DNA of 64,000 nt, taken from NCBI RefSeq assembly GCF_056746865.1, contig NZ_CM163382.1. One strand, given 5' to 3'. The notes under the pieces were generated by a model. The model had not been told where the DNA came from and made no database searches. It saw only the letters and a program-made list of their open reading frames with translations. A program made the position numbers and the translations under genes. Positions 6,001-46,433 of this stretch are shown piece by piece. Every line of letters begins with the position of its first letter. Position 1 is the stretch's first letter.

Positions 6001-9000
6001 GGGCGATGACATCATTAACGCCACAGAACACGGACAGGCGCAGATTATCAGCGGCTCGGCAACGGGCGCGACGACCGGTAACACGGTGTCCGTGACGATT
6101 GGCACGACCACTTACACCACCGTGCTGGACGCCAACGGCAACTGGAGCATCGGCGTGCCTGCCAGCGTGATTTCCGCACTGGCGCAGGGGAATGTGACCA
6201 TTACCGCCACGGTCACCGACTCCGCAGGCAACAGCGGCACGGCCTCGCACACTGTCAGCGTGGCGCTCGGCGCGCCGATACTGAGTATTAACACCATCGC
6301 CGTTGATGACATCATTAATGCCACGGAGAAAGGCGCGGATCTGGCGATTTCCGGAAGCAGCAACCAGCCTGCGGGTACGCAGATAACCGTTACGCTCAAC
6401 GGGCAAAATTACACCACCACTGCCGATGCATCCGGTAACTGGAGCGTGACCGTTCCGGCGTCACGGGTGAGCACCCTCGGTGAAGCCACTTACACGGTGA
6501 CTGCCGCCGCCACTGACGCCGATGGCAACAGCGGTTCCGCCAGCCATAACGTGCAGGTTAATACCGCGCTGCCGGGCGTCACCATTAACGTTGTCGCGAG
6601 CGACGATATTATTAACGCTGCCGAAGCGGGCGCGGGCCAGAGCATCAGCGGGCAGGTGACGGGCGCGGCAGCGGGCGACACGGTAACCGTCACGCTCGGC
6701 GAGGCGACTTACACTGCCACGGTGCAGGCGAATTTAAGCTGGAGCGTCGATGTTCCGGCCTCCGCGCTACAGGCGTTGGGCAACGGTGAACTGACCATTT
6801 CGGCTTCGGTAACGAACAGCGTAGGCAATACCGGCAACGGCACGCGCGAAATCACCATCGACGCGAATCTCCCCGGTCTGCGGATTGACACCGTGGCGGG
6901 CGATGATGTGGTCAACATTATCGAGCACGGGCAGGCGCTGGTGATTACCGGCAGCAGCTCCGATCTGGCAGCGGGCAGCAACGTCACGCTGACCATTAAC
7001 GGGCAAACCTATGTTGCGGCGGTACTGGCGGATGGCTCATGGAGCGTCGGCGTTCCGGCGGTGGATGTCAGCGCCTGGCCTGCGGGGACGGTCACGATTA
7101 CAGCCAGCGGCAACACCACCGCCGGAAACCCGGTGAGCGTTACGCATCCGGTGACTGTCGATCTCACTGCGGTGGCGGTCAGCATCAACGCCATTACTGC
7201 CGATGACGTGATTAACGCTGCCGAAAAAGGCGCGGCGTTAACGCTCTCTGGCAGCACTTCTGGTGTCGAAGCCGGGCAAACGGTCACCGTCACCTTTGGC
7301 GGCAAAACCTACACTGCAAGCGTCGCGGCGAATGGTTCCTGGAGTACCACGGTTCCGGCGACAGATATGGCAGCCCTGCGTGATGGCGATGCCAGCGCGC
7401 AGGCCAACGTCAGCAATGTTAACGGCAACAGCGCCACCACTACCCACGCTTACAGCGTCGATGCTACCGCGCCAACGGTGACCATTAACACCATTGCGGG
7501 CGACGACATTCTTAACGCCGCCGAAGCCGGAGCGGCGCTGACCATCACTGGCAGCAGCACGGCGGAAGCGGGGCAGACGGTGACCGTCACCCTCAATGGT
7601 GCAAACTATACTGGCACCGTACAGACGGACGGCAGCTGGAGCATCAGCGTACCGCCAGCCGACTTAAGCGCCCTGACCGCCAGCAACTACACCGTTAGCG
7701 CGGCGGTGAGCGACAAAGTCGGAAACCCGGCCTCGGTTAATCACAACCTGACGGTGGATACGTCTGTTCCGGTCGTCACCATCAACACGGTGGCAGGCGA
7801 TGATGTGATCAACGCGACGGAACACGCCCAGGCGCAGATTATCAGCGGCTCCGCCACGGGTGCGGCAACCGGCAGCGCCGTGACGGTGACTATCGGCACA
7901 AACACCTTTACCACCGTACTGGATGCCAGCGGTAACTGGAGCGTCGGCGTTCCGGCAAGCGTCGTCTCGGCGCTGGCGAACGGCACGGTGACCATTAACG
8001 CCAGCGTCACCGATGCCGCCGGAAACAGCGGCAGCGCTACGCATCTGGTGACGGTCAATACTGGCCTTCCGTCAATTACCTTTAACGCCATCAGCGGCGA
8101 TAACGTCCTGAACGCCGATGAAAAAGGCCAGCCGTTGACCATTAGCGGTAGCAGTACGGGGTTGGCGACCGGCGCACAGGTTACCGTCACACTCAACGGT
8201 CATAACTACAGCGCTACCACCGACGCGGCGGGCAACTGGACGTTAACCGTGCCGGTGAGCGATCTGGCGGCTTTAGGCCAGGCCAACTATATCGTCAGCG
8301 CCAGCGCCACCAGTGCGGCAGGCAACATCGCCAGCAGCCAGGCGAATTTACTGGTCGATAGCGGCCTGCCGGGCGTCACCATCAACACCGTGGCGGGCGA
8401 TGATATTATCAACGCCGCCGAAGCCGGGGCCGATCAAACCATCAGCGGGGTGGTCACTCGTGCCGCCGCTGGCGATACGGTTACCGTCACGCTGGGCGGC
8501 AACACTTACACCACCACGGTACAGGGCAACTTAAGCTGGAGTATCAGCGTTCCGGCAGCCGATCTCCAGGCGTTGGGCAATGGCGATTTGACCATTAACG
8601 CTTCGGTCACCAACGCGAATGGCAATACGGGCAGCGGTACGCGGGATATCACCATTGACGCTAACCTGCCAGGGCTGCGCGTGGATACGGTAGCGGGCGA
8701 TGATATCGTCAACAGCATTGAACACGGGCAGGCGCTGGTGATCACTGGCGGCAGTAGCGGCCTGAATGCAGGCGTGCCATTGACGATCACGATTAACGGC
8801 ACGGCTTATTCCGCCACGGTACAGGCAGACGGGAGCTGGAGCGTCGGCATTCCGGCGACAAACGTCAGCGCATGGCCTGCGGGGGCGTTAACCGTTGACG
8901 TGGCAGGCCAGAGCAGCGCCGGAAATCCGGTCAGCGTCAGCCATCCGTTCACCGTCGATTTAACGGCGGTGGCAATCAGCATCAACACCGTTGCCAGCGA

Positions 9001-12000
9001 CGACGTAATTAACGCCGCCGAAAAAGGCACCGACCTGACCCTTTCTGGCAGCACCAGCGGAATTGAAAGCGGGCAAACCGTTACCGTCACTTTTGGCGGT
9101 AAAACCTACACTGCAAGCGTCGCCGCCAACGGTAGCTGGAGTGTGAACGTTCCAGCGGCAGATCTGGCAACTCTGCCAGACGGCGCGGCGAACGTGCAGG
9201 CCAGTGTCAGCAGCGCGAGCGGTAACAGTGCCTCGGCGACCCATGCGTACAGCGTTGACGCCAGCGCACCGACGCTCACCATTAACACCATTGCCAGCGA
9301 CGATATTCTTAACGCCACGGAGGCGGGAAGCCCGCTCACCATCAGCGGCACCAGCACCGCCGAAACCGGGCAGACGGTCACCGTAACCCTTAACGGCGCA
9401 ACCTACAGCGGTAATGTGCAGGCAGACGGTAGCTGGAGCGTCAGCGTTCCCCCTTCAGCCTTAGGCGCGCTGACCGCAAGCAATTACACCGTCAGCGCCA
9501 CGGTCAACGACAAAGCGGGCAACCCCGGCAGCACCAGCCATAATCTGGCGGTAGACACCACCGCGCCGGTTCTCACCATTAACACCGTGGCAGGCGATGA
9601 CATCATCAACGATGCTGAACACGCCCAGGCGCTGGTGATTTCCGGCACCAGCAGCGGCGGGGAAGCGGGCGATGTGGTGAGCGTTGTGCTCAACGGCAAA
9701 ACCTACACCTCCACCCTGGATGCCTCCGGCAACTGGAGCGTTGGCGTTCCGGCGGCGGATGTTACGGCGCTGGGTAGCGGCGCACAGACCATCACCGCCA
9801 GCGTCAGCGATCGGGCGGGTAACAGCGATGACGCCAGCCGCACCGTGACCGTCAGCCTCAGCGCGCCAGTGATTAGCATCAACACCATCGCGGGCGATGA
9901 TGTGATCAACGCGACGGAAAAAGGATCTGATCTGACGCTTTCCGGCACCAGCGATCAGCCTGCGGGTACGGCGATCACCGTTACGCTGAACGGACAAAAC
10001 TACAGCGCCACCACCGACGCCTCCGGCAACTGGAGCGTTACCGTGCCTGCCTCTGCTGTCAGTGCGCTGGGCGAAGCCACCTACAGCGTGACGGCGAGCG
10101 TCACCAATGCTCAGGGTAACAGCAGCACCGCCAGCCATAACGTGCAGGTCAATACCGCGCTGCCGGGCGTCACCATTAATCCGGTGGCGACGGACGATAT
10201 TATCAACGCCGCTGAAGCAGGCAGTGCGCAAACCATCAGCGGCCAGGTAACCGGTGCGGCGGCGGGCAGCACCGTCACCGTTGAACTGGGCGGCAAAACT
10301 TACACCGCCACGGTCCAGGCTGATTTAAGTTGGAGTGTGAGCGTACCTGCCGCCGACTGGCAGGCGCTGGGTAACGGTGAGTTAACGGTTAATGCCTCGG
10401 TGACCAACGCCGTTGGCAACACCGGTAGCGGCACGCGCGATATCACCATCGATGCCAGTCTGCCTGGCCTGCGGGTGGATACCGTCGCGGGTGATGATGT
10501 GGTCAATATCATCGAACACAGTCAGGCGCAGGTGATCACCGGTAGCAGCTCCGGCTTTGCGGTGGGCACGGCGCTGAACGTAGTGATAAATAATCAAACT
10601 TACGCCGCCACGGTGCTGGCGAACGGCAGCTGGAGCGTCGGCGTTCCTGCGACGGATGTCAGTAACTGGCCTGCGGGAACGCTGAATATTACCGTTAGCG
10701 GCGCGAACAGTGCCGGAACGCAAACCAGCATTACCCATCCGCTGACCGTTGATCTCACCACCGTCGCCGTCAGCATAAACAGCATCACCAGCGATGATGT
10801 GATTAACGCCGCCGAAAAAGGCGCGGCGCTAACGCTCTCCGGCAGCACGTCCGGCGTCGAAGCGGGGCAAACCGTTACCATTACTTTTGGCGGTAAAACC
10901 TACACCACCACGGTGGCGGCAAACGGTAGCTGGAGCACCACCGTTCCGGCGGCGGATATGGCGGCCCTGCGTGACGGCGATGCCAGCGCCCAGGTGCGGG
11001 TGACTAACGTCAACGGCAACAGCGCCACGGCAACGCATGAATACAGCGTCGATAGCGCCGCGCCAACGGTCACCATCAACACCATTGCCAGCGATAACAT
11101 CATCAATGCCAGCGAAGCGGCGGCGGGCGTAACGGTGTCCGGCACCAGCACGGCGCAAACCGGGCAGACGCTCACCGTCACGCTTAATGGCACTAACTAC
11201 CAGACCACGGTGCAGGCAGACGGCAGCTGGAGCTTAACGCTGCCCGCCAGCGACTTAACCGCACTTGCCAATAACGGCTACACCCTGACCGCCACGGTCA
11301 GCGATTTGGCGGGTAACCCTGGCAGCGCCAGCAAAGGTGTGACCGTCGATACCACCGCGCCCGTCATCAGCTTTAACACCGTGGCGGGCGACGATGTGAT
11401 TAACAGAGTTGAACACACTCAGGCGCAGATTATCAGCGGCACCGCCACGGGCGCGGTGGCGGGCGACCGTCTGGTGGTGACCATCGCCGGGCAGCAGTAT
11501 GTCACCAGCACCGATGCCAGCGGCAACTGGAGCGTCGGCGTGCCTGCCAGCGTGATTTCCGGCCTTGCAGATGGCACAGTGACTATCAGCGCCACTATCA
11601 CCGATAGCGCAGGCAACAGCAGCACCCAGACGCACAACGTACAGGTAAACACGGCGGCAGTGTCGCTCTCGGTCAGCACCATCAGCGGCGATAATATTAT
11701 TAACGCCGCCGAAGCGGGCAGTGCGCTGACCCTGAGCGGCACCGGAACGAACTTTGCCGCAGGTACAGTGGTGACCGTGTTGCTTAACGGCAAAGGCTAC
11801 AGCGCTACCATTCAGAACAACGGGAGCTGGAGTGTGAACGTGCCGGCGGCAGACGTCGCGGCACTGGCGGATGGCACCAGCTACACGGTTAGCGCCTCCG
11901 CCCAGGATAGCGCCGGAAACAGCGCCACGGCCTCGCGCAGTGTGGCGGTGGATCTCACCGCGCCGGTTATCAGCATAAACACGGTTTCAACGGACGACCG

Positions 12001-15000
12001 ACTCAACGCCGCCGAACAGCAGCAGCCGTTAACCCTTAACGGCTCGACCAGCGCGGAAGTAGGGCAGACGGTAACCGTCACCTTTGGCGGCAAAACTTAT
12101 ACCGCCACGGTGGCCGCCAATGGCACCTGGGCGCTGAACGTGCCTGCGGCAGATCTGGCCGCGCTCGGGCAGGGCGCACAGACCATTACCGCCAGCGTGA
12201 ACGATCGCGCCGGTAACCCCGGTCAAACCACGCACGCCCTGACCGTCGATACCGTTGCGCCAACGGTCACCATCGCCACGGTGGCGGGTGACGATATTAT
12301 CAACAACGCCGAACAGCTCGCTGGGCAAACCATCAGCGGCACCACCACCGCTGAAGTGGGCCAGACGGTGACCGTCACCTTTAACGGTCAGAGCTGGACT
12401 GCAACGGTCGGCAGCGGCGGAAGCTGGTCGGTGTTTATTCCGGCGCAGCAGTTTGCCGGATTAAGCGACGGCAGCTACACCATTAGCGCGACGGTTAGCG
12501 ATCAGGCCGGAAACCCTGGTAGCGCCAGCCGTGGCGTGACATTGAACGGCGACGTCCCCTCCGTCACCATCAACACCTTTGCGGGCGATGATGTGGTGAA
12601 TGCGGCGGAGCACGGCTCGTCGCTGGTGATCAGCGGCACCACCACCGCCCCAGTCGGGCAGACGCTGACCCTGACCTTAAACGGCAAAACCTACACTACC
12701 ACGGTACAGACCGGCGGTAGCTGGAGCTACACCCTCGGCAGCGCCGATGTCACCGCGCTGGCGGACGGCAATGCCTACGTGATTAACGCCTCGGTGAGCA
12801 ACGCCATTGGCAACACCGGCAGCAGCAATCACACCATTACCGTCGACCTCAGCGCCCCGGCGATGGGCATTAATATCGATTCCCTGCAAGCCGACACTGG
12901 CCTTAGCTCCAGCGACTTTATCACCAGCGTCAGCCCGGTGGTGGTCAACGGCTCGCTCACCGCCGCGCTTGCCAGTAACGAGACGGCGCAAATCAGTATC
13001 GACGGCGGCGTAACCTGGACCACGCTTACCGTTACCGGCACGACCTGGCGCTATAACGACAGCCGCACGCTGACCGATGGTAACTATCTCTATCAGGTAC
13101 GGGTGATTGACGCAGCGGGCAACGTCGGTGCCACTGACAGCCAGAATGTGGTGATCGACACCATCGCGCCAGATCCAGCAGTAAAAACCATCGCCATCAG
13201 CGCGATCACCACCGATACTGGATTGATTACTAACGATTTTGTCACCAGCGACACGACGCTTGCGGTGAGCGGCACGCTGGGGGCGGCGCTTTCTGCCGGT
13301 GAGTTCGCGCAAATCAGCATTGATGGCGGCACCACCTGGCAGAATCTTTCGGTAAGCGGTTTGACCTGGACATATCTTGACGGGCGTACGCTGACTGACG
13401 GCAACTACAACTATCAGGTACGGGTGATCGACACCGCCGGAAATATCGGCGCGACTGCCAGCCAGATAGTCACCGTGGATACCACCGCGCCGCTGGCGAG
13501 CAAAACCATCGCCATTGCGGGCATTAGCGATGACACCGGGTTAAGCAGCAGCGATTTTGTTACTCGCGACACTACGCTTACTGTGCGCGGCACGCTCGGC
13601 GCGGCGCTGGCGGCAGACGAACGGGCGCAAATCAGCCTCGACGGCGGTGTCACCTGGACCACGTTAACCGTTATCGGCACCAGCTGGAGCTATGCCGATG
13701 GTCGCACACTGACCGACGGCACCTGGAACTACACGGTGCGGGTGGTGGATCTGGCGGGGAACGTTGGGCAGACCGCAACGCAAAACGTGGTGGTCGACAC
13801 CACCAGCCCGGAAGCGGCGAAAAGTATCACCATTACCGGTATCAGCGATGACACCGGAGCCAGCAGCAGCGATTTTATTACCAGCGACACCTCGCTTACC
13901 GTGCGCGGCGTATTGGGGGCGGCGCTCGGCGCTAACGAATTCGCGCAAATCAGTACCGACAACGGCGCAACCTGGGTGAACGTGACCGTCGCCGCAGACG
14001 GCCTTAACTGGAGTTACGTTGACGGACGCACGCTCACCAACGGCACCACCACCTGGCAGGTGCGGGTGGTGGATCTGGCGGGCAACGTTGGCGCAACCGG
14101 CAGCCAGTCGGCGCAGATTGACACCGTGAACCCGGCGCAGGTACTCACCATCGCCAGCATCAGCACCGACACGGGGAGTTCGGCAACTGACTTTATCACC
14201 AGCGATACCTCGCTCACGCTGACCGGTTCGCTGGGGGCGGGGCTTGCCAGCGGCGAAGTGGCGCAGATTAGCCTCGACGGCGGCGCGACCTGGATCACGC
14301 TCACCACCAACGGCACGCAGTGGACCTACACTGACAGCCGCACGCTGACCGACGGCAGCTACGTTTACCAGGTGCGGGTGCTGGATCTGGCGGGGAATAC
14401 TGGCCCGGTGGTGTCGAAAACGGTGGTGGTCGATACGATTAACCCCACCGCGACGCCGACCATTGTGTCGTACACTGATGACGTCGGGCAGCGGCAGGGG
14501 ACATTAAGCAGTTCGCAGGCCACCGACGACACTACGCCGTTGCTGAACGGCGTGCTCTCCGGCCCGCTTGCCAGCGGTGAAGTGGTTTACCTCTACCGTA
14601 ACGGCCTGCTGTTAGGCGCGGTAACGATGGTAGGCGCACTGAACTGGACCTACAGCGACAGCGGGCTGGTGAGCGGTGCCTACACCTACAGCGCGCGAGT
14701 GGTGGATCTGGCGGGGAATATCACCTCCTCCAGTGATTTTGTCCTGATGGTCGATACCTCTATTCCGACCACGCTGGCGCAAATTACCAGCCAGACCACG
14801 CGCGATACTACGCCGATTATCAGCGGGGTGATCACCGCCGCGCTTGCCAGCGGGCAGTATGTTGAAGTGGTGATCAACGGCAAAACCTACACCTCTGAAC
14901 CGGGCGGTGCGGTGGTGGTCGATCCGGCGCACAACACCTGGTATGTACAGTTGCCGGATACCGACGCGCTGGCGGCTTCTGCGACCGCCTATAACGTCAC

Positions 15001-17248
15001 CGCGCAGGTAAAAAGCTCGGCGGGCAACGGCAATAACGCCAATATTAGCAACGGCACGGTGACGGTTAACGCGGCGATTGATTACACACCGACCTGGACC
15101 ACCGCCAGCAAAACCACCGCCTGGGGGCTGACCTACGGCCTCGACACGCACGGAATGTGGACGGTGCTGGCAAACCAGCAGGTAATGCAATCGACTGACC
15201 CACTCACCTGGTCGAAGACCGCGCTGACGCTGTATCAGAGCGGCAACAACTACGCCACCAGCTCCATCGCCGATTACGACCGTAACGGCACGGGCGATCT
15301 GTTTATCACCCGTGATGACTACGGTACAGGCTATATCAACGGCTTTACCAATAACGGCGACGGCACCTTTTCCAGCGCTATTCAGGTCACCGTCGGCACC
15401 CTGACGTGGTACGGCTCGATTGTGGCATTTGATAAAGAGGGCGACGGCTATCTCGACTTCTGGATTGGCGACGCGGGCGGGCCGGACTCCAACACCTTCC
15501 TGTGGAACAACGCAGGTACGCTGGTAGGTAACTCCACTACGTCGAACAGCGGCGGTAGCGCCACGGTGGGCGGGGCGGTGACGGGGTATCTTTCGCTCAA
15601 CGAAGGTTCTGGCGTCGATCTGAACAATGACGGCAGGATCGACCTGGTTCAGCACACCTACAACCTGAACAACTATTACACGCTATCTTCGCTCATCAAC
15701 CAGGGGAATGGCACGTTTGTCTGGGGGCAGAACACCACCAATACCTTCCTGAGCGGGGCGGGTAGTGGCGCTATGAGCAGCAGCGTTTCTATGACCTGGG
15801 CCGATTTCGATGGCGACGGCGATATGGACCTCTTCCTGCCTGCCAGCCAGGGAAGAGCTAACTACGGCTCGCTGTTATTCAACACCAACGGCGTGCTGGG
15901 CAGTCCGGTGGCGGTGGGCGCAACGGCAACCACCTACGCCAGCCAGTTTAGCGTGGCGGTGGACTGGAACCACGACGGCCTGATGGATATCGCCCGTATC
16001 GCCCAGACCGGACAATCGTATCTTTACACCAACGTTGGTGGTGCCAGCAACTGGACACAATCGGCCCTCGGCGGCAGCCAGAGCGGTACCACCAGCGGCG
16101 TGGCGGCAATGGACTACGACTGGGACGGCGCGGTGGATGTACTGGTGACCAAACAGTCGGGCAGCGTGTTCCTGATCCGCAACACCAACACGGTGAGCTA
16201 CGGCACTTCGCTACACCTGCGCATCACCGATCCCAACGGCATTAACGTCTATTACGGTAATACCGTAAAACTGTATAACTCGGCGGGGGTGCTGGTCGCC
16301 ACGCAAATCATTAACCCGCAGTCGGGGATGGGGGTTAACGACACCTCGGCGCTGGTCAACTTCTACGGGCTGAATGCCGGAGAAACCTACAACGCGGTGC
16401 TGATCAAATCCACTGGCACCACCGCCAGCAATATCGACCAGACGGTCAACACCAGCTGGGGCGGCTTACAGGCCACCGATGCCACTCACGCTTACGACCT
16501 CAGCGCCGAAGCAGGCACCGCGAGCAACAATGGCAAGTTCGTCGGCACGGGCTATAACGACACCTTCTTTGCCACCGCAGGTACTGACACTTACGACGGC
16601 TCCGGCGGCTGGGTGTACAGCTCCGGCACCGGAACGTGGCTGGCAAACGGCGGCATGGACGTGGTTGATTTCCGCCTCTCGACGGTGGGCGTGACCGCGA
16701 ACTTAAGCAGCACCGCCGCACAGGCCACCGGCTTTAACACCTCGACATTTACCAATATCGAAGGCATTTCCGGCTCGAATTTTAACGACACTCTGACCGG
16801 CAGCAGCGGCGATAACCAACTGGAAGGGCGCGGCGGCAACGACACCCTTAACATCGGAAACGGCGGTCACGATACCTTGCTCTATAAATTGCTCAACGCC
16901 AGTGACGCTACCGGCGGCAACGGCTCAGACGTGGTGAATGGCTTTACGGTAGGGACATGGGAAGGCACCGCCGACACCGATCGCATTGATATCCGCGAGT
17001 TGTTACAGGGCAGCGGCTACACCGGCAACGGCAAAGCCAGCTACGTCAACGGCGTGGCAACGCTGGATGCGCAGGCTGGAAACATCGGTGATTTTGTCAA
17101 AGTCACCCAGAGCGGCAGCGACACCATCGTGCAGATCGACCGCGACGGCACGGGCGGCACTTTTGCGGCAACTAACGTGGTCACGCTGACGGGCGTGCAT
17201 ACCGACCTCGCCACTTTGCTGGCGAATCATCAGTTGATGGTGGTGTAG
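1..17248 (+). CDS. Giant T1SS-secreted repeat adhesin (SiiE/LapA/Bap-like), 5' partial; 5743 codons in window
   Basis: Reading frame is open from window start (frame 2) to the stop at 17248. About 12.8 kb of ~100-aa Ig-like repeats, then a second repeat class, FG-GAP/VCBS-like motifs, RTX-like Gly/Asp-rich repeats and an acidic C-terminus, with a T1SS ABC transporter gene 4 bp downstream. Confidence 0.9.
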   Translation, partial: IATDDVINAAEKGADLTLSGTTTNVEPGQTVTVTFGGKNYTASVASDGSWTATVPAADLASLPEGSASAQASVSNINGNSASAVHNYSIDSSAPTIIINTVASDNIVNASEADAGVTVSGSTTAEAGQIVTVTLNSPTVQTYQATVQADGSWSINIPAADLEALTDGSHTLTATVNDKAGNPASTTHNLAVDLTVPVLTINTIAGDDIINAAEHGQALVISGSSTGGEAGDVVTVTLNSKTYTTTLDASGNWSVGVPAADVTALGSGPQTVTATVTDAAGNSDNETHTVTVNLAAPTIGINTIATDDVINATEKGADLQISGTSNQPAGTTITLTLNGQNYTATTDAAGNWSTTVPASAVGALGEASYTVTANVTDSAGNSNSASHNVQVNTALPGVTLNPVASDDIINAAESGVAQTISGQVTGAAAGDTVTVTLGGKTYTATVQGNLSWSVDVPAADIQAIGNGDLTVNASVTNGVGNTGSGSRDITIDANLPGLRVDTVAGDDVVNSIEHSQALVITGSSSGLAAGAALTVVINTVTYAATVLADGTWSLGVPAADVGNWPAGTVNITVSGATSAGNPVTITHPVTVDLAAVAISINTVSGDDVINAAEKGADLTLSGSTSGVELGQTVTVTFGGKTYTATVAGDGSWTTSVPAADLAALRDGDATVQASVSNINGNTASATHAYSVDATAPTFAINTIATDDILNAAEAGNPLTISGSSTAEAGQTVTVTLNGVTYTGTVQADGSWSVSVPTADLSNLTASQYTVSASVSDKAGNPATATHGLAVDLTVPVLTINTVSGDDIINAAEHGQALVISGSSTGGEAGDVITVTLNSKTYTTTLDASGNWSVGVPLSDVTALGSGPQTITATITDAAGNSDDASRTVTVNLTAPTIGINTIADDDVINATEKGADLQITGTSNQPAGTTITVTLNGQNYTAITDASGNWSATVPASAVSALGEANYTVTANVTDSAGNSNSASHNVLVNSALPAVTINAVAADDIINAAEAGNAQTISGQVTGAAAGDTVTVTLGGNTYTATVQANLSWSVSVPAADIQAIGNGNLTVNASVTNGVGNTGSGSRDITIDANLPGLRVDTVAGDDVINSIEHNQALVITGSSTGLTAGTALTVEINNVTYGATVLADGTWSLGIPAADVSNWPAGTVDITVSGTNSAGTTSTITHPVTVDLAAVAITINTLSGDDVINAVEKGETLVVSGSTSGVEAGQTVTVTFGGKNYTTTVEANGSWTVNVPPADLAALPDGAGNVQASVSNINGNSAQADRAYSVDATAPLITINTIASDDTLNVSEAGAGITISGTTTAQAGQTLTVTLNNNTYQTTILADGTWSVNVPATDLSGLTASSYTVTATVSDKASNPASADHALAVDVTAPDLTINTVAGDDIINAIEHGQALVVSGTSTGAAAGDVVTVSLNGKNYTTTLDASGNWSVGIPAADVTALATGSQTITASLSDRAGNSDSATHNVTVDLSGPTLTISTVSGDDIINNAEKTQDLTISGGSSGLATGTTVTVMLNGLAYSATTDSSGNWSVTVPASAVGALGEAVYSISASATDSAGNSGSTTHTVNVESLLPGVIINTVAGDDIINAAEIVVAQTISGQVTGTAVAGNTVIVTIGGNQYNATVQSDLSWSVSVPANVLQALGNGELTISASVTNSANNTSTATHDIVIDANLPGLRVDTVAGDDVINSIEHTQALVITGSSSGLAAGAALTVVINSVTYGATVLADGSWSVGVPAADVTNWPAGTVNIAVSGTNTAGTTTSISHPVTVDLAAVAITINTLSTDDVINAAEKGSDLQLSGTTSDVEAGQTITVIFGGKSYTTTVAAGGTWGLTIPAADLATLPDGAANVQASVSNVAGNSAQATHAYSVDATAPSVTINTIATDDILNADEAGSALTISGTSTAEAGQTVTVTLNGVNYSGNVQADGSWSVSVPTGDLANLTASPYTVSAAVSDKAGNPASATHNLTVDLVAPVVTINTVAGDDIINATEHGQAQIISGSATGATTGNTVSVTIGTTTYTTVLDANGNWSIGVPASVISALAQGNVTITATVTDSAGNSGTASHTVSVALGAPILSINTIAVDDIINATEKGADLAISGSSNQPAGTQITVTLNGQNYTTTADASGNWSVTVPASRVSTLGEATYTVTAAATDADGNSGSASHNVQVNTALPGVTINVVASDDIINAAEAGAGQSISGQVTGAAAGDTVTVTLGEATYTATVQANLSWSVDVPASALQALGNGELTISASVTNSVGNTGNGTREITIDANLPGLRIDTVAGDDVVNIIEHGQALVITGSSSDLAAGSNVTLTINGQTYVAAVLADGSWSVGVPAVDVSAWPAGTVTITASGNTTAGNPVSVTHPVTVDLTAVAVSINAITADDVINAAEKGAALTLSGSTSGVEAGQTVTVTFGGKTYTASVAANGSWSTTVPATDMAALRDGDASAQANVSNVNGNSATTTHAYSVDATAPTVTINTIAGDDILNAAEAGAALTITGSSTAEAGQTVTVTLNGANYTGTVQTDGSWSISVPPADLSALTASNYTVSAAVSDKVGNPASVNHNLTVDTSVPVVTINTVAGDDVINATEHAQAQIISGSATGAATGSAVTVTIGTNTFTTVLDASGNWSVGVPASVVSALANGTVTINASVTDAAGNSGSATHLVTVNTGLPSITFNAISGDNVLNADEKGQPLTISGSSTGLATGAQVTVTLNGHNYSATTDAAGNWTLTVPVSDLAALGQANYIVSASATSAAGNIASSQANLLVDSGLPGVTINTVAGDDIINAAEAGADQTISGVVTRAAAGDTVTVTLGGNTYTTTVQGNLSWSISVPAADLQALGNGDLTINASVTNANGNTGSGTRDITIDANLPGLRVDTVAGDDIVNSIEHGQALVITGGSSGLNAGVPLTITINGTAYSATVQADGSWSVGIPATNVSAWPAGALTVDVAGQSSAGNPVSVSHPFTVDLTAVAISINTVASDDVINAAEKGTDLTLSGSTSGIESGQTVTVTFGGKTYTASVAANGSWSVNVPAADLATLPDGAANVQASVSSASGNSASATHAYSVDASAPTLTINTIASDDILNATEAGSPLTISGTSTAETGQTVTVTLNGATYSGNVQADGSWSVSVPPSALGALTASNYTVSATVNDKAGNPGSTSHNLAVDTTAPVLTINTVAGDDIINDAEHAQALVISGTSSGGEAGDVVSVVLNGKTYTSTLDASGNWSVGVPAADVTALGSGAQTITASVSDRAGNSDDASRTVTVSLSAPVISINTIAGDDVINATEKGSDLTLSGTSDQPAGTAITVTLNGQNYSATTDASGNWSVTVPASAVSALGEATYSVTASVTNAQGNSSTASHNVQVNTALPGVTINPVATDDIINAAEAGSAQTISGQVTGAAAGSTVTVELGGKTYTATVQADLSWSVSVPAADWQALGNGELTVNASVTNAVGNTGSGTRDITIDASLPGLRVDTVAGDDVVNIIEHSQAQVITGSSSGFAVGTALNVVINNQTYAATVLANGSWSVGVPATDVSNWPAGTLNITVSGANSAGTQTSITHPLTVDLTTVAVSINSITSDDVINAAEKGAALTLSGSTSGVEAGQTVTITFGGKTYTTTVAANGSWSTTVPAADMAALRDGDASAQVRVTNVNGNSATATHEYSVDSAAPTVTINTIASDNIINASEAAAGVTVSGTSTAQTGQTLTVTLNGTNYQTTVQADGSWSLTLPASDLTALANNGYTLTATVSDLAGNPGSASKGVTVDTTAPVISFNTVAGDDVINRVEHTQAQIISGTATGAVAGDRLVVTIAGQQYVTSTDASGNWSVGVPASVISGLADGTVTISATITDSAGNSSTQTHNVQVNTAAVSLSVSTISGDNIINAAEAGSALTLSGTGTNFAAGTVVTVLLNGKGYSATIQNNGSWSVNVPAADVAALADGTSYTVSASAQDSAGNSATASRSVAVDLTAPVISINTVSTDDRLNAAEQQQPLTLNGSTSAEVGQTVTVTFGGKTYTATVAANGTWALNVPAADLAALGQGAQTITASVNDRAGNPGQTTHALTVDTVAPTVTIATVAGDDIINNAEQLAGQTISGTTTAEVGQTVTVTFNGQSWTATVGSGGSWSVFIPAQQFAGLSDGSYTISATVSDQAGNPGSASRGVTLNGDVPSVTINTFAGDDVVNAAEHGSSLVISGTTTAPVGQTLTLTLNGKTYTTTVQTGGSWSYTLGSADVTALADGNAYVINASVSNAIGNTGSSNHTITVDLSAPAMGINIDSLQADTGLSSSDFITSVSPVVVNGSLTAALASNETAQISIDGGVTWTTLTVTGTTWRYNDSRTLTDGNYLYQVRVIDAAGNVGATDSQNVVIDTIAPDPAVKTIAISAITTDTGLITNDFVTSDTTLAVSGTLGAALSAGEFAQISIDGGTTWQNLSVSGLTWTYLDGRTLTDGNYNYQVRVIDTAGNIGATASQIVTVDTTAPLASKTIAIAGISDDTGLSSSDFVTRDTTLTVRGTLGAALAADERAQISLDGGVTWTTLTVIGTSWSYADGRTLTDGTWNYTVRVVDLAGNVGQTATQNVVVDTTSPEAAKSITITGISDDTGASSSDFITSDTSLTVRGVLGAALGANEFAQISTDNGATWVNVTVAADGLNWSYVDGRTLTNGTTTWQVRVVDLAGNVGATGSQSAQIDTVNPAQVLTIASISTDTGSSATDFITSDTSLTLTGSLGAGLASGEVAQISLDGGATWITLTTNGTQWTYTDSRTLTDGSYVYQVRVLDLAGNTGPVVSKTVVVDTINPTATPTIVSYTDDVGQRQGTLSSSQATDDTTPLLNGVLSGPLASGEVVYLYRNGLLLGAVTMVGALNWTYSDSGLVSGAYTYSARVVDLAGNITSSSDFVLMVDTSIPTTLAQITSQTTRDTTPIISGVITAALASGQYVEVVINGKTYTSEPGGAVVVDPAHNTWYVQLPDTDALAASATAYNVTAQVKSSAGNGNNANISNGTVTVNAAIDYTPTWTTASKTTAWGLTYGLDTHGMWTVLANQQVMQSTDPLTWSKTALTLYQSGNNYATSSIADYDRNGTGDLFITRDDYGTGYINGFTNNGDGTFSSAIQVTVGTLTWYGSIVAFDKEGDGYLDFWIGDAGGPDSNTFLWNNAGTLVGNSTTSNSGGSATVGGAVTGYLSLNEGSGVDLNNDGRIDLVQHTYNLNNYYTLSSLINQGNGTFVWGQNTTNTFLSGAGSGAMSSSVSMTWADFDGDGDMDLFLPASQGRANYGSLLFNTNGVLGSPVAVGATATTYASQFSVAVDWNHDGLMDIARIAQTGQSYLYTNVGGASNWTQSALGGSQSGTTSGVAAMDYDWDGAVDVLVTKQSGSVFLIRNTNTVSYGTSLHLRITDPNGINVYYGNTVKLYNSAGVLVATQIINPQSGMGVNDTSALVNFYGLNAGETYNAVLIKSTGTTASNIDQTVNTSWGGLQATDATHAYDLSAEAGTASNNGKFVGTGYNDTFFATAGTDTYDGSGGWVYSSGTGTWLANGGMDVVDFRLSTVGVTANLSSTAAQATGFNTSTFTNIEGISGSNFNDTLTGSSGDNQLEGRGGNDTLNIGNGGHDTLLYKLLNASDATGGNGSDVVNGFTVGTWEGTADTDRIDIRELLQGSGYTGNGKASYVNGVATLDAQAGNIGDFVKVTQSGSDTIVQIDRDGTGGTFAATNVVTLTGVHTDLATLLANHQLMVV
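2..12850 (+). repeat. Tandem array of ~300-bp (~100-aa) Ig-like domain repeats organised as a ~1.8-kb higher-order unit of six domain subtypes, at least 7 copies
   Basis: Recurring motifs (INAAEKGADLTLSG, TVTFGGKTYTA, INAAEHGQALVISG, INATEKGADLQISG, AQTISGQVTGAAAGDTVTVTLGG, VNSIEHSQALVITG) return in the same order. Antisense artefact ORFs recur at 1621, 3415, 5215, 7009, 8806 and 10600, giving a period of about 1797 bp. Confidence 0.85.
12851..14450 (+). repeat. Second class of ~105-aa repeats in the adhesin (about six copies)
   Basis: Repeated pattern DTGLSSSDFITSDTSLTVRGTLGAALAA.E.AQIS.DGG.TW..LTV.G..W.Y.DGRTLTDG.Y.YQVRV.D.AGN; two more degenerate copies follow to about 15050. Confidence 0.6.
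15270..16150 (+). repeat. FG-GAP/VCBS-like calcium-binding repeats (probable beta-propeller) in the adhesin
   Basis: Spaced Dx[DN]xDGxxD motifs: DYDRNGTGDLF, FDKEGDGYLDF, DLNNDGRIDLV, DFDGDGDMDLF, DWNHDGLMDIA, DYDWDGAVDVLV. Confidence 0.55.
16540..16890 (+). repeat. RTX-like glycine/aspartate-rich nonapeptide repeats preceding the C-terminal secretion signal
   Basis: GTGYNDTFFATAGTDTYDGSGG and GSNFNDTLTGSSGDNQLEGRGGNDTLNIGNGGHDTLLY resemble GGxGxDxUx repeats; the protein ends ...TLLANHQLMVV. Confidence 0.6.
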
Positions 17249-24194: not shown

Positions 24195-24365
<171 letters not shown>

Positions 24366-32809: not shown

Positions 32810-32930
32810 GATTGCCTGATGCGCTACGCTTATCAGGCCTACGAGGATCGTGCAATATATTGATTTTGCAAGATTGTGTAGGCCGGATAAGGCGTTTACG
32901 CCGCATCTGGCATGAACAGTGTGCATTTTG
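32810..32930. repeat. REP/BIME palindromic repeats downstream of ybbP
   Basis: gcctgatgcgctacgcttatcaggcctac and gtaggccggataaggcgtttacgccgcatc motifs. Confidence 0.6.
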
Positions 32931-32997: not shown

Positions 32998-33305
32998 TAG
33001 CTACGTTTCCTCAGTTATTCAATAAACTGACGGATCAGTTCCAGCAGCGCGATTAGCGCCTTAAGAACGATGAGAACTGCCTCTCTCCAAATTAGAGCAC
33101 CAGAATCAGCACCACCTGTATCCTGACCAGGACTTAAAAGTACTTTTCCGCACTGCGGTAATCCCTTGAGGCAGTATCACTACTAGCGTCGGGATTGTAT
33201 CGCCAACATAGCTGTTTGAATATGTAGGCATCCTGACTTATAATTCATTTGCTAGATGAGGACTGTTTCATTTCTGCCCGGAACCACCAAGTCTTGGGCG
33301 GAAAA

Positions 33306-33340
33306 AATAAAAAAACCGACTGTCATGTCGGTTTTTTTAT
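33306..33340. terminator. Bidirectional rho-independent terminator downstream of selU
   Basis: aaaaaaaccgac-tgtcat-gtcggttttttt: stem-loop flanked by an A-run and a T-run. Confidence 0.65.
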
Positions 33341-33401: not shown

Positions 33402-34511
<1,110 letters not shown>

Positions 34512-34564
34512 TCAAATCAGCTTGCGCGCTATTTTACGCGCCAACGCGCAAGGAAACTTGATTT

Positions 34565-35491
34565 TTAACTGCGTGGGTTGCCGAAAATTTCTAAAAATCC
34601 GCTGATTTCCGGCCTGCGCTGGGTAAACAAGGTCACAATATCTTCTACCGCTTTGCCGCTGCCAAATTTGCGCCATGCCAGACTCAATGGCGAAGGAGGG
34701 CGCATCGTTGGGATTACCCGGCTGACCAGTTGTTGATTATCGATCATTGACTGGCAAAGTGATTTTGGCAAAAAACCAATGCCAACGCCCGCCAGATGGG
34801 CGGCGATTTTCGTTTCCATATCGGGAACAATAATCTCTTTTTGCCCCGGCAATCGCCAGGCGACGCGTTTGGTTAGTGTTCGGGCGCTGTCTTCAATATT
34901 GACCGCCGGAAAGCGCCGCAACTGTGCTTCTGTTAGCGGCTCTTCAACGTTCGCCAGCGGATGATCCGCCGCCATGACAAAGCGCCATTGCACCGATCCT
35001 AAGGGATCAAGACTAAAGGTATTTGCCAGCGCCTCGGTTCCCGTGACGCCGATAGCCAGTGAAAAACCTTCGTACAATAGCGAGTCCCAGACGCCCATAT
35101 AGATTTGTCGGGAGATGTGAAACTGGGTAAACGGGTAACGTTCATTCAGCCACGCCAGCAGCTGGGCGACGGCCTGGGGGGTGTAGAGCAGGTTGTTGAT
35201 GACAATATTCACCTGGCGTTCCACGCCATCATTCACCTGTTGCAGCTCGCTGGGCATACTTTCCAGCCAGCTCAGCCAGTCTCTGGCCTGGGAAAGTAGA
35301 TGCTCGCCAGCCGCTGTCAACGTCACGCTGCGAGTCGTGCGGAAAAACAGCGCCACTCCGGTATTCTCTTCCAGAAGTTTAATGCGATAACTGATCGTCG
35401 CCGTGGTTTTACACAATCGTTCTGCCGCTTTTGAAAAACTTCCTGTTTCAGCAACCGCAATGAAAGTCCGCAAGGTTTCTGGATCGAACAT
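34565..35491 (-). CDS. allS: LysR-type activator AllS
   Basis: 308 aa with N-terminal HTH; divergent from allA. Confidence 0.9.
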
Positions 35492-35598
35492 CTTCAGGTA
35501 TCCCCTTTTAAATCCGCAAGTTGCGTGATTTTCTTATCCTCTGATTTATCAGTATTTTTACATGATAACCCTGTTCAATTTGTGGACTAAATCTAGTT

Positions 35599-35615
35599 TT
35601 GGAAAAATATTCCAA
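35599..35615. promoter_or_regulatory. Candidate AllR operator in the allS-allA intergenic region
   Basis: Palindrome ttggaaaaatattccaa, near-identical to the palindrome upstream of gcl. Confidence 0.55.
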
Positions 35616-35720
35616 CTTTTGTGTTGATGTTGTTCTCTTAAGGTTTTAGATTGCCTGTTATTGAAACCAAGCTGACCGGTCGGCGGTGGTTGAACGGAAT
35701 TATGTTATAAGGACAAAAAG

Positions 35721-36203
35721 ATGAAACTTCAGGTATTACCGTTAAGTCAGGAAGCCTTTAGTGCTTATGGCGACGTAATCGAAACGCAGAAACGGGATTT
35801 TTTCCATATTAACAATGGACTGGTGGAGCGTTACCACGATTTGGCGCTGGTTGAGATTCTTGAGCAAGACCGTACGCTTATCAGCATTAACCGCGCGCAA
35901 CCGGCGAATCTGCCGCTGACCATTCACGAACTCGAACGTCATCCGCTGGGTACTCAGGCCTTTATCCCGATGAAAGGTGAAGTGTTTGTGGTGGTCGTGG
36001 CGTTAGGTGACGACAAACCAGACCTGTCAACGCTGCGGGCGTTTATTACCAACGGCGAACAGGGGGTGAATTACCATCGTAACGTCTGGCATCATCCACT
36101 TTTCGCCTGGCAGCGCGTCACCGATTTTCTGACCATCGATCGCGGCGGCAGTGACAACTGTGATGTTGAAAGTATTCCTGAACAGGAACTCTGTTTTGCG
36201 TGA
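35721..36203 (+). CDS. allA: Ureidoglycolate lyase AllA
   Basis: 160 aa, [21 protein letters not shown]... Confidence 0.9.
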
Positions 36204-36280
36204 CGCCTGCAACCGACTTGCATAAGATAAACTAATTGTTCATTGTTTATGCTCACTTGTAGGTCGGAGTTAACGTAGGT

Positions 36281-37096
36281 ATGACGGAAGTTAGACGGCG
36301 CGGCAGGCCAGGACAGGCGGAGCCTGTGGCACAGAAGGGCGCACAGGCGTTAGAGCGGGGAATTGCGATTCTGCAATATCTGGAAAAAAGTGGGGGAAGT
36401 TCGTCGGTTAGCGATATCTCTCTCAATCTGGATTTGCCGCTCTCCACGACCTTTCGCTTGCTGAAGGTTTTACAGGCAGCGGATTTTGTCTATCAGGACA
36501 GTCAGTTAGGCTGGTGGCATATAGGATTAGGTGTCTTTAACGTCGGTGCGGCGTACATCCATAACCGCGATGTCCTCTCCGTCGCCGGGCCGTTTATGCG
36601 CCGCCTGATGTTACTTTCCGGCGAAACGGTCAATGTCGCGATCCGTAACGGTAATGAAGCGGTATTAATTGGTCAGTTAGAGTGTAAATCGATGGTCAGG
36701 ATGTGCGCGCCACTGGGCAGTCGTCTGCCGCTGCATGCTTCCGGTGCGGGCAAAGCGCTGCTTTATCCGCTGGCGGAAGAGGAGTTGATGAGCATCATTC
36801 TGCAAACCGGTTTGCAGCAGTTTACGCCAACTACGCTTGTGGATATGCCCACCTTGCTGAAGGACCTGGAACAAGCGCGTGAACTGAGCTATACCGTAGA
36901 TAAAGAAGAGCATGTTGTCGGCCTGAATTGTATAGCTTCAGCAATTTACGATGATGTAGGTAGCGTTGTTGCCGCTATCTCCATCTCCGGGCCTTCATCA
37001 AGACTGACAGAAGATCGTTTTGTCAGTCAGGGTGAGCTGGTCAGAGACACCGCCCGCGATATCAGCACGGCGTTGGGACTGAAAGCACATCCATAG
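36281..37096 (+). CDS. allR: IclR-family repressor AllR
   Basis: 271 aa; N-terminal HTH and C-terminal IclR effector domain. Confidence 0.9.
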
Positions 37097-37108
37097 TGTC
37101 TGTCGCAT

Positions 37109-37133
37109 CCCGCTCTGCGGAGCGGGTTTTTTT
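37109..37133 (+). terminator. Rho-independent terminator after allR
   Basis: cccgctc-tgcg-gagcggg followed by ttttttt. Confidence 0.65.
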
Positions 37134-37148
37134 GACAAAATTTGAAAG

Positions 37149-37165
37149 TTGGAAAATTTTTCCAA
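37149..37165. promoter_or_regulatory. Candidate AllR operator in the gcl promoter
   Basis: Perfect palindrome ttggaaaatttttccaa, about 20 bp upstream of the gcl ribosome-binding site. Confidence 0.6.
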
Positions 37166-37185
37166 TTAATAGAGGTAGGAATAAA

Positions 37186-38967
37186 ATGGCAAAAATGAGA
37201 GCCGTTGACGCGGCAATGTATGTGCTGGAGAAAGAAGGTATCACCACCGCCTTCGGCGTTCCGGGAGCTGCAATCAATCCGTTCTACTCAGCGATGCGTA
37301 AGCACGGCGGTATTCGTCACATTCTGGCGCGTCATGTGGAAGGTGCTTCGCACATGGCGGAAGGTTATACCCGCGCAACGGCAGGGAATATCGGCGTATG
37401 TCTGGGAACCTCGGGACCAGCAGGCACTGACATGATCACCGCGCTCTATTCCGCTTCTGCTGATTCCATTCCTATTCTGTGTATTACCGGTCAGGCACCG
37501 CGCGCCCGTCTGCATAAAGAAGATTTTCAGGCCGTAGATATTGAAGCAATTGCTAAACCGGTCAGCAAAATGGCGGTTACAGTTCGTGAAGCGGCGCTGG
37601 TGCCTCGTGTGCTGCAACAGGCATTTCACCTGATGCGTTCTGGTCGTCCGGGGCCGGTACTGGTGGATTTACCGTTTGACGTACAGGTTGCGGAAATCGA
37701 GTTTGATCCTGACATGTACGAACCGCTGCCGGTCTACAAACCTGCAGCCAGCCGTATGCAGATCGAAAAAGCGGTAGAAATGTTAATTCAGGCCGAACGT
37801 CCGGTGATTGTTGCCGGGGGCGGGGTAATCAATGCTGACGCAGCTGCACTGTTACAACAGTTTGCTGAACTGACCAGCGTTCCGGTGATCCCAACGCTGA
37901 TGGGCTGGGGCTGTATCCCGGATGACCACGAACTGATGGCCGGGATGGTGGGTCTGCAAACTGCGCATCGTTACGGTAACGCAACGCTACTGGCGTCCGA
38001 CATGGTGTTTGGTATCGGTAACCGTTTTGCTAACCGTCATACCGGTTCGGTAGAGAAATACACCGAAGGGCGCAAAATCGTTCATATCGATATTGAGCCG
38101 ACGCAAATTGGCCGCGTGCTGTGTCCGGATCTGGGCATTGTCTCTGATGCTAAAGCGGCGCTGACGCTGCTGGTTGAAGTGGCGCAGGAGATGCAAAAAG
38201 CGGGTCGTCTGCCGTGTCGTAAAGAATGGGTCGCCGACTGCCAGCAGCGCAAACGCACTTTGCTGCGCAAAACCCACTTCGACAATGTGCCGGTGAAACC
38301 GCAGCGCGTGTATGAAGAGATGAACAAAGCCTTTGGTCGCGATGTTTGTTATGTCACCACCATTGGTTTGTCACAAATCGCTGCGGCACAAATGCTACAT
38401 GTCTTTAAAGACCGCCACTGGATCAACTGTGGGCAGGCAGGCCCGTTGGGCTGGACCATTCCGGCGGCGCTGGGCGTGTGTGCCGCTGATCCAGAGCGCA
38501 ATGTGGTGGCGATTTCCGGTGACTTCGACTTCCAGTTTCTGATTGAAGAATTAGCCGTTGGCGCACAGTTCAACATTCCGTACATCCATGTACTGGTCAA
38601 TAACGCCTATCTGGGTCTGATTCGCCAGTCGCAGCGCGCGTTTGATATGGATTACTGCGTACAGCTCGCGTTCGAAAATATTAACTCCAGCGAAGTGAAC
38701 GGTTACGGCGTCGACCACGTAAAAGTAGCGGAAGGTTTAGGTTGTAAAGCGATTCGCGTTTTCAAACCGGAAGATATAGCACCAGCCTTTGAACAGGCGA
38801 AAGCCTTAATGGCGCAATATCGGGTACCGGTAGTCGTGGAAGTTATTCTCGAGCGTGTGACCAATATTTCGATGGGCAGCGAACTGGATAATGTCATGGA
38901 ATTTGAAGATATCGCCGATAACGCAGTGGATGCACCGACTGAAACCTGCTTCATGCACTATGAATAA
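37186..38967 (+). CDS. gcl: Glyoxylate carboligase (tartronate-semialdehyde synthase)
   Basis: Start placed at [27 protein letters not shown]...; ThDP-enzyme architecture; RBS aggtagga upstream. Confidence 0.95.
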
Positions 38968-40734: not shown

Positions 40735-40903
40735 TACCCGCAATAAAAATGGCCGATATCAGAAAATGAATCGGCCAGCAATATTAAAAAAAGAAAGCAG
40801 CCAAAGATGTTGCTTCAGTATTAAAAATAATATTTTTATTTTATTTGTTCCTCATAGCTAGATTAAAACAGCGTTATTCGATACGTGAAATTAAGAGGGA
40901 TTT

Positions 40904-42358
40904 ATGGAACATCAGAGAAAACTATTCCAGCAACGCGGCTATAGCGAAGATCTATTGCCGAAAACGCAAAGCCAGCGGACCTGGAAAACATTTAACTATT
41001 TTACCTTATGGATGGGTTCGGTTCATAACGTTCCCAATTATGTGATGGTCGGCGGCTTTTTTATTCTCGGCTTGTCTACCTTTAGTATTATGCTGGCAAT
41101 TATCCTCAGCGCCTTTTTCATTGCCGCGGTAATGGTATTAAACGGTGCTGCGGGCAGTAAATACGGTGTGCCTTTTGCCATGATCCTGCGTGCTTCTTAC
41201 GGCGTACGTGGTGCACTGTTTCCCGGATTATTAAGAGGCGGGATTGCTGCCATTATGTGGTTTGGCCTGCAATGTTACGCTGGATCGCTGGCCTGCTTGA
41301 TTCTGATTGGCAAAATCTGGCCGGGATTTTTAACTCTCGGTGGTGATTTTACCCTGTTAGGGCTTTCTCTACCGGGCTTAATCACTTTCTTACTCTTCTG
41401 GCTGGTGAACGTCGGAATCGGTTTCGGTGGTGGCAAAGTTTTAAATAAATTCACTGCCATTCTTAACCCGTGCATCTATATCGTTTTCGGCGGTATGGCG
41501 ATTTGGGCGATTTCGCTGGTCGGGCTCGGTCCAATCTTTGACTACATTCCGAGCGGTATTCAGAAAGCAGAAAACAGTGGCTTCCTGTTCCTGGTGGTGA
41601 TTAACGCGGTAGTTGCGGTCTGGGCGGCACCGGCGGTGAGCGCATCCGACTTTACGCAAAACGCCCACTCGTTTCGTGAGCAGGCGCTGGGGCAAACGCT
41701 CGGTTTAGTTGTGGCCTATATTCTGTTTGCGGTCGCCGGGGTATGTATTATTGCCGGAGCCAGTATTCACTACGGCGCTGACACCTGGAACGTGCTGGAT
41801 ATTGTTCAGCGTTGGGATAGCCTGTTTGCCTCGTTCTTTGCGGTACTGGTTATTCTGATGACGACTATCTCCACTAACGCCACCGGTAATATTATTCCTG
41901 CTGGTTATCAGATTGCCGCTATTGCACCGACGAAACTGACCTATAAAAACGGCGTACTGATTGCCAGTATTATCAGCCTGCTGATCTGCCCGTGGAAATT
42001 AATGGAAAATCAGGACAGTATTTATCTGTTCCTCGATATTATCGGCGGAATGCTGGGTCCGGTAATTGGTGTCATGATGGCGCATTATTTTGTGGTGATG
42101 CGTGGGCAAATTAATCTTGATGAACTGTACACCGCACCTGGCGATTATAAATATTACGATAACGGTTTTAACCTCACTGCGTTTTCAGTAACTCTGGTGG
42201 CCGTTATTTTATCTCTTGGCGGTAAGTTTATTCCCTTTATGGAACCGTTATCTCGTGTTTCATGGTTTGTCGGCGTCATCGTCGCCTTTGCGGCCTACGC
42301 CTTATTAAAGAAACGTACAACAGCAGAAAAAACAGGAGAGCAAAAAACCATAGGTTAA
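40904..42358 (+). CDS. ybbW: Allantoin permease (NCS1 family) YbbW
   Basis: 484 aa, polytopic membrane protein within the allantoin cluster. Confidence 0.85.
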   Translation: MEHQRKLFQQRGYSEDLLPKTQSQRTWKTFNYFTLWMGSVHNVPNYVMVGGFFILGLSTFSIMLAIILSAFFIAAVMVLNGAAGSKYGVPFAMILRASYGVRGALFPGLLRGGIAAIMWFGLQCYAGSLACLILIGKIWPGFLTLGGDFTLLGLSLPGLITFLLFWLVNVGIGFGGGKVLNKFTAILNPCIYIVFGGMAIWAISLVGLGPIFDYIPSGIQKAENSGFLFLVVINAVVAVWAAPAVSASDFTQNAHSFREQALGQTLGLVVAYILFAVAGVCIIAGASIHYGADTWNVLDIVQRWDSLFASFFAVLVILMTTISTNATGNIIPAGYQIAAIAPTKLTYKNGVLIASIISLLICPWKLMENQDSIYLFLDIIGGMLGPVIGVMMAHYFVVMRGQINLDELYTAPGDYKYYDNGFNLTAFSVTLVAVILSLGGKFIPFMEPLSRVSWFVGVIVAFAAYALLKKRTTAEKTGEQKTIG

Positions 42359-46349: not shown

Positions 46350-46364
46350 ACCTGAATTTACCGC

Positions 46365-46395
46365 AAAAAAAGCCACGGTATAAACCGTGGCAAAA
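46365..46395. terminator. Bidirectional terminator between glxK and allE
   Basis: aaaaaaa-gccacggt-ataa-accgtggc-aaaa. Confidence 0.6.
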
Positions 46396-46433
46396 TCCAA
46401 CATAGCTAAAAATAATCAGGCGAGTGGTATGAC

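Follow-up and report, generated by a model that had tools for sequence, protein, structure and literature searches.

Two near-identical 17-bp palindromes in the window, that is, in the whole 64,000-nucleotide stretch of DNA analysed here, can be assigned with a probability of about 95% to the repressor AllR as its operators. In the proposed scheme the gcl promoter would be occluded at one of them, the other would serve as a single operator repressing both allA and allS, and glyoxylate would release AllR. The operators of this module are already known in E. coli, and an earlier note on this DNA had read the palindromes in the same way; that reading is now supported by the identities of the surrounding genes, by the recognition site quoted in the literature, by the fit to the AllR motif and by conservation in orthologous loci.

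Genomic context and gene identities

The window belongs to an E. coli chromosome, being 100% identical over the 2,901 bases compared (34500-37400) to strain 118UI and several other strains; the locus region was found in 5,404 of 5,426 complete E. coli genomes. According to the RefSeq annotation of strain 118UI, converted to window coordinates, the window holds the whole allantoin cluster. The proposed targets of the first operator are the divergent genes allS (34565-35491, minus strand), encoding a LysR-type activator, and allA (35721-36203, plus strand), encoding ureidoglycolate lyase, with scores of 642 and 364 bits on the NCBIfam equivalog models AllS and AllA, respectively. Between both operators lies allR (36281-37096, plus strand), which encodes the IclR-family repressor itself, and the proposed target of the second operator is gcl (37186-38967, plus strand), the gene for glyoxylate carboligase (1282 bits on the Gcl equivalog). 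All four proteins score above their NCBIfam equivalog cut-offs. The allR gene is intact, since its open reading frame of 271 amino acids spans the full AllR equivalog NF007548 (617.5 bits against a cut-off of 406), and the effector domain of the protein matches PDB 1TF1.

The gcl gene is the first of the gcl-hyi-glxR-allW-allB-ybbY-glxK operon. The genes located 3' of it are hyi, glxR, allW, allB, ybbY and glxK, then allE-allC-allD, followed by the allF (fdrA) operon. The start of gcl was taken as the annotated ATG at 37186, while the GTG at 37096 is a mechanical open reading frame start only.

Elsewhere, positions 1-17248 of the window fall within siiEA, a giant adhesin gene that is related to BapA and contains long internal repeats. 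Four Rfam matches at the gathering score were obtained, namely STnc480 (46361-46427, plus strand), naRNA4 (24241-24318, minus strand), AgrB (33252-33340, plus strand) and ES036 (32835-32877, minus strand). The STnc480 match sits between glxK and allE. Next to the AgrB match, between ybbP and mnmH, a dinQ-like type I toxin gene is annotated (about 33015-33092, minus strand).

Sequence and statistical support of the palindromes

Operator 1, in the allS-allA spacer, occupies positions 35599-35615 (centre 35607) with the sequence TTGGAAAAATATTCCAA, which is identical in K-12, and recurs at this place in all orthologous loci that include the region; operator 2, upstream of gcl, occupies 37149-37165 (centre 37157) with the sequence TTGGAAAATTTTTCCAA and is a perfect palindrome of 8+1+8 nucleotides. 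The letters of the window read ttggaaaaatattccaa and ttggaaaatttttccaa at these places, exactly as the earlier note had reported them. Its description of the two as near-identical palindromes is likewise borne out: about one central base, complementary pairs are formed by 7 of 8 arm positions at site 1 and by 8 of 8 at site 2, and the sites share 15 of 17 nucleotides in the same orientation, or 16 of 17 with one of them reverse-complemented. Site 1 is placed at the exact midpoint of the 229-bp divergent allS-allA intergenic region (35492-35720). Site 2 follows the allR terminator and is separated from the gcl ATG by 20 nt.

The arm pattern TTGGAA-N5-TTCCAA was seen twice in the 64 kb, against 0.0026 occurrences expected from base composition. 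When the published 19-nt AllR consensus was searched with up to 3 mismatches, only these two places in the window matched; shuffled sequences gave a mean of 0.14 hits, with fewer hits than the window in all 100 shuffles. A weight matrix was built from 38 orthologous non-Escherichia sites and is thus independent of this window. It scored the two sites at 38.2 and 35.7 bits, compared with 4.0 bits for the next best position of the window and 16.8 bits for the best among 100 local shuffles. A simple test for a pair of 17-mers with at least 14 of 17 identities turned out to be too loose, as 55 of 300 shuffles gave such a pair, and for this reason the argument relies on the expectation for the arms and on the weight matrix. 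With 7 or more of 8 arm positions paired, 39 palindromes of 17 nt occur in the window (29 expected), and further near-palindromic 17-mers that recur, for example ACGGTGACCGTCACCTT with its centres at 3694, 7585 and 12373, are explained by the internal repeats of siiEA.

The palindrome pair is therefore real and far beyond chance, and it is confirmed to be present in exactly two copies. In the motif scan of the whole window, which the earlier note had suggested as a check, no third copy appeared in 64 kb: with the consensus, looser patterns and the weight matrix, no further AllR site above noise was found upstream of allR, allW, allB, allD-allF or purE.

Predicted promoters and the terminator around the operators

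The built-in consensus promoter scan gave no convincing promoter around the operators, its one match being an implausible one across the gcl ATG. Promoters were therefore predicted by scoring sigma-70 hexamers across orthologues, using approximate textbook values for the frequencies. For allA, the best-scoring sigma-70 pair extends over 35624-35652 on the plus strand, with a -35 element TTGATG (35624-35629), a 17-bp spacer and a -10 element TAGATT (35647-35652). Its offset from the palindrome is constant in 17 of 20 loci, and it coincides with conserved blocks in the spacer alignment. Transcription of allA would accordingly be predicted to start at about 35659, which would centre operator 1 at about -52. 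In the opposite direction, a candidate allS promoter was placed at 35562-35591 on the minus strand (-35 TTTAGT, 35591-35586; 18-bp spacer; -10 TATCAT, 35567-35562). Here 10 of 20 loci have a -10 element at an offset of +40 or +41 among their three best candidates, and the spacer alignment shows conservation of this block, so that the allS promoter may mirror that of allA about the palindrome, a placement held less firmly than the allA one. Variants of the predicted allA -35 element (35624-35629) occur next to an unchanged operator, namely TTAATG in strain 2013C-4361 and TTGAAG in three Chinese isolates (L027-L030).

The geometry predicted at gcl is a different one. The candidate promoter spans 37132-37160 on the plus strand and combines a -35 element TTGACA (37132-37137) with a -10 element located in the A/T-rich centre of operator 2, at about 37153-37160. 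In 17 of 21 loci, the first base of the best -10 element is 1 to 5 nt ahead of the palindrome centre. With 20 nt separating site 2 from the gcl ATG, the ribosome-binding site GAGG included, transcription probably starts at about 37165-37169. The intrinsic terminator of allR (37109-37133, plus strand) consists of a hairpin at 37109-37126 and a T run, both conserved across genera, and the T run overlaps the predicted gcl -35 element. The 89 bp between allR and gcl pack together a terminator, a predicted promoter, an operator and a ribosome-binding site.

The palindromes had been described in the earlier note as lying in front of two promoters, those of allA and gcl. This is retained for site 1, while site 2 most likely overlaps the predicted gcl core promoter; likewise, allA and gcl stand as the genes concerned, with the correction that three promoters are involved, the mid-spacer site 1 also serving allS.

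Agreement with published AllR sites

AllR has been reported to bind the allS-allA control region and the promoter of the gcl operon, and allS to be repressed by AllR with glyoxylate as the inducer (PMC12535856). In the same work allF had no AllR site and showed no effect of an allR deletion (PMC12535856), consistent with the result of the weight-matrix scan, which revealed no AllR site in the allD-allF spacer. In vivo, AllR has been described as acting with high specificity, having one strong site or a few (PMC12059191).

A 2026 paper quotes AAATCTAGTTTTGGAAAAATATTCCAACTTTTGTATT as the recognition site that Rintoul et al. 2002 gave for AllR (PMC13300388). It corresponds to window positions 35589-35625 with 36 of 37 nucleotides identical, and the sole difference, at 35623, is outside the palindrome. 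The comparison with the published site, another check proposed in the earlier note, thus shows the site 1 palindrome to be identical to the quoted sequence. An AllR-repressed gclP reporter has been constructed from an 81-bp K-12 fragment (PMC13300388), the primers of which delimit the K-12 equivalent of window positions 37098-37178, site 2 included. A collection of motifs lists AllR as KTTGGAAWAWTWTTCCAAC and IclR as TGGAAATNATTTCCA (PMC8222616); the former fits site 1 with no mismatch and site 2 with one. The placement of the footprint at gcl is drawn from such secondary citations together with the comparative evidence.

Relative to K-12, the site 1 palindrome is identical and site 2 agrees at 16 of 17 positions, differing only at the centre base, which is T here and A in K-12. 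This position (37157) is polymorphic at about 50:50 in the species: exact matches of 31 nt were obtained in 2,467 complete E. coli genomes for the T form and in 2,500 for the A form. Because the palindrome has an odd length, the exchange of T for A at its centre merely turns site 2 into its own reverse complement, and the polymorphism is probably neutral.

Conservation across genera and strains

A scan with the AllR protein, taking one genome per species, yielded 22 loci from Escherichia, Superficieibacter, Klebsiella, Raoultella, Citrobacter, Buttiauxella, Izhakiella, Atlantibacter, Providencia and two other Enterobacteriaceae, with AllR identities down to 66% in Providencia. The gene order allS / allA-allR-gcl is kept in all 22. 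Wherever a locus includes the two regions, a single palindrome is found in the allS-allA spacer and another directly ahead of gcl; nothing else in the two spacer alignments is conserved as strongly as these. A single arm change was observed in only 4 of the 38 non-Escherichia sites, the five central bases varying between A and T, and the helix-turn-helix segment of AllR is nearly invariant in the same orthologous genomes. Five more-diverged E. coli strains have changes beside site 1 and none within it.

The two sites differ in a characteristic way. Site 1 shows the asymmetric form AAAA-W-TATT (35609) in 16 of 19 non-Escherichia loci, whereas site 2 has T at the matching position (37159) in 18 of 19. 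The asymmetry is thus conserved and site-specific, and it might tune the affinity of the site or overlap another signal.

One of the records, CACSKA010000001.1 (L009), is labelled 'Chryseobacterium sp. 18061' and contains a typical enterobacterial allS-allA-allR-gcl locus encoding an AllR 85% identical to that of E. coli. Its gene coordinates and both palindromes match the record of Citrobacter sp. 18056 (L021), and the assembly is probably mislabelled or contaminated.

Other elements near the operators

Several further elements were considered in the vicinity. A hairpin seemed at first to be conserved in the allA leader (35655-35712) but was dropped: no consensus structure emerged from the alignment, and the z-scores of single sequences lay between -2.0 and +0.9. 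An upstream RutR site has been cited for the gcl operon (PMC10163214); near gcl in the window, no RutR box with up to 3 mismatches was found. An A/T palindrome at 40822-40838 was also discarded, being not conserved outside Escherichia.

Directly upstream of allW, 10 loci of several genera share a conserved non-coding block (40845-40911 in the window) of the form TTGTTCCTCATAGCTAGA...AGCGTTATTCGATACGTGAA...AGAGGGA, which has no match in Rfam. Pairing is possible between its UGUUCC and the GGAACA of allW codons 2-3; for this helix 90% of the cells are paired, as against 80% for shuffled sequences, and one exchange of G-C for U-A is seen in 4 sequences. The block could be a leader or translational control element, or the site of a regulator.

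Regulatory model and alternative explanations

The following scheme is proposed for the module. In the absence of glyoxylate, AllR would bind each 17-bp inverted repeat TTGGAA-N5-TTCCAA with one helix-turn-helix per half-site. At gcl, operator 2 would cover the predicted -10 element and the start, so that RNA polymerase would be sterically excluded and the gcl operon kept off. Between allS and allA, a single operator about 52 bp upstream of both divergent starts would repress both genes, allS being the gene of an activator needed for the expression of allD and allF. Glyoxylate, the product of the pathway, would free AllR from the DNA, switching on all three units. Within this scheme, the binding of AllR, the repression and the release by glyoxylate come from the literature on K-12, and it is the promoter positions and the occlusion that we infer. 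Since operator 1 at about -52 does not overlap a predicted core promoter, the repression of allA and allS is not explained by simple occlusion.

AllR is reported to form a dimer of dimers and to require tetramerisation in vivo (Walker et al. 2006). Each operator, being a single palindrome, would engage one dimer, and the two sites are near-identical, which leaves some room for a model in which one AllR tetramer bridges both operators and loops out 1,550 bp with allA and allR. Repression would then act through this bridge and not by simple occlusion, and the TAT of site 1 as opposed to the TTT of site 2 might tune it. Such a mechanism appears improbable, because the centre-to-centre distance of the operators ranges from 1,541 to 1,636 bp among the loci with no conservation of helical phase, because looping is unreported in the literature examined, and because the 81-bp gclP fragment is still described as AllR-repressed at another chromosomal site (PMC13300388). 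It is also hard to regard the palindromes as chance A/T-rich inverted repeats or as ordinary promoter elements of the -10 or UP type that no repressor of their own would bind. Their centres are indeed A/T-rich and -10-like, and palindromes of this length are somewhat more frequent in the window than expected (39 versus 29). The specific arm sequence, on the other hand, exceeds its expectation by far (2 versus 0.0026), and the published AllR site is matched. Across genera, moreover, it is the A/T centre that varies and the arms, with their G/C bases, that stay almost unchanged; a -10 element would show the reverse. This explanation has a negligible probability.

The paralogous repressor of the glyoxylate shunt, IclR, deserves attention as a possible owner or co-user of the sites, since the outer arms of its box are shared and some cross-recognition is conceivable. 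With the IclR motif TGGAAATNATTTCCA, site 2 shows 2 mismatches and site 1 shows 3, and the AllR of the window scores 244 bits on the IclR NCBIfam model, a sign of related DNA-binding domains. At these mismatch levels, however, the IclR motif is not above chance (5 hits in the window, 2.5 expected), and the mismatches all fall at the inner positions, where the motifs differ (AAAA-W-TTTT in AllR, AAAT-N-ATTT in IclR). The protein passes the AllR equivalog cut-off and fails that of IclR (244 versus 380 bits), the sites accompany allR in every genome examined, and binding and repression at these promoters are assigned to AllR in the literature (PMC12535856, PMC13300388). An IclR assignment is therefore very unlikely, and the palindromes are best regarded as AllR operators.

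For the annotation of the window the pair provides direct sequence support of the allantoin regulon, with little beyond confirmation. On a wider scale, the allS-allA-allR-gcl module stably retains its AllR operator pair across Enterobacterales. The cross-genus collection of sites and the free choice of A or T at the centre base may be of use for the modelling of AllR or for glyoxylate biosensors based on gclP, as may the conserved asymmetry of site 1 and the predicted promoter geometry.

Comparison with known regulatory systems

The closest known counterpart is the pair of AllR operators in K-12, where the same genes carry them at the same positions, operator 1 being identical and operator 2 one centre base apart. 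The second system to be compared is the IclR box of the aceBAK and iclR promoters. Its 15-nt core shares with the AllR sites the outer arms TGGAA(A)...(T)TTCCA and an A/T-rich centre; the inner three positions of each half differ, and the AllR sites have an extra outer T/A (TTGGAA...TTCCAA). In the window, the match to the IclR motif fails, aceBAK and iclR are both absent, and the sites flank allA-allR and not the promoters of aceB or iclR. The repressors of the two systems are paralogous and the metabolic signal is related, IclR itself responding to glyoxylate; the genomic location and the regulator differ. A more remote likeness exists to BhcR of Paracoccus, an IclR-family regulator of the genes of the beta-hydroxyaspartate cycle and glyoxylate assimilation. 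BhcR is the second-best NCBIfam match of the window AllR, with 264.9 bits, which is below the BhcR cut-off of 350; the organism group and the pathway are different, and the likeness is one of protein score.
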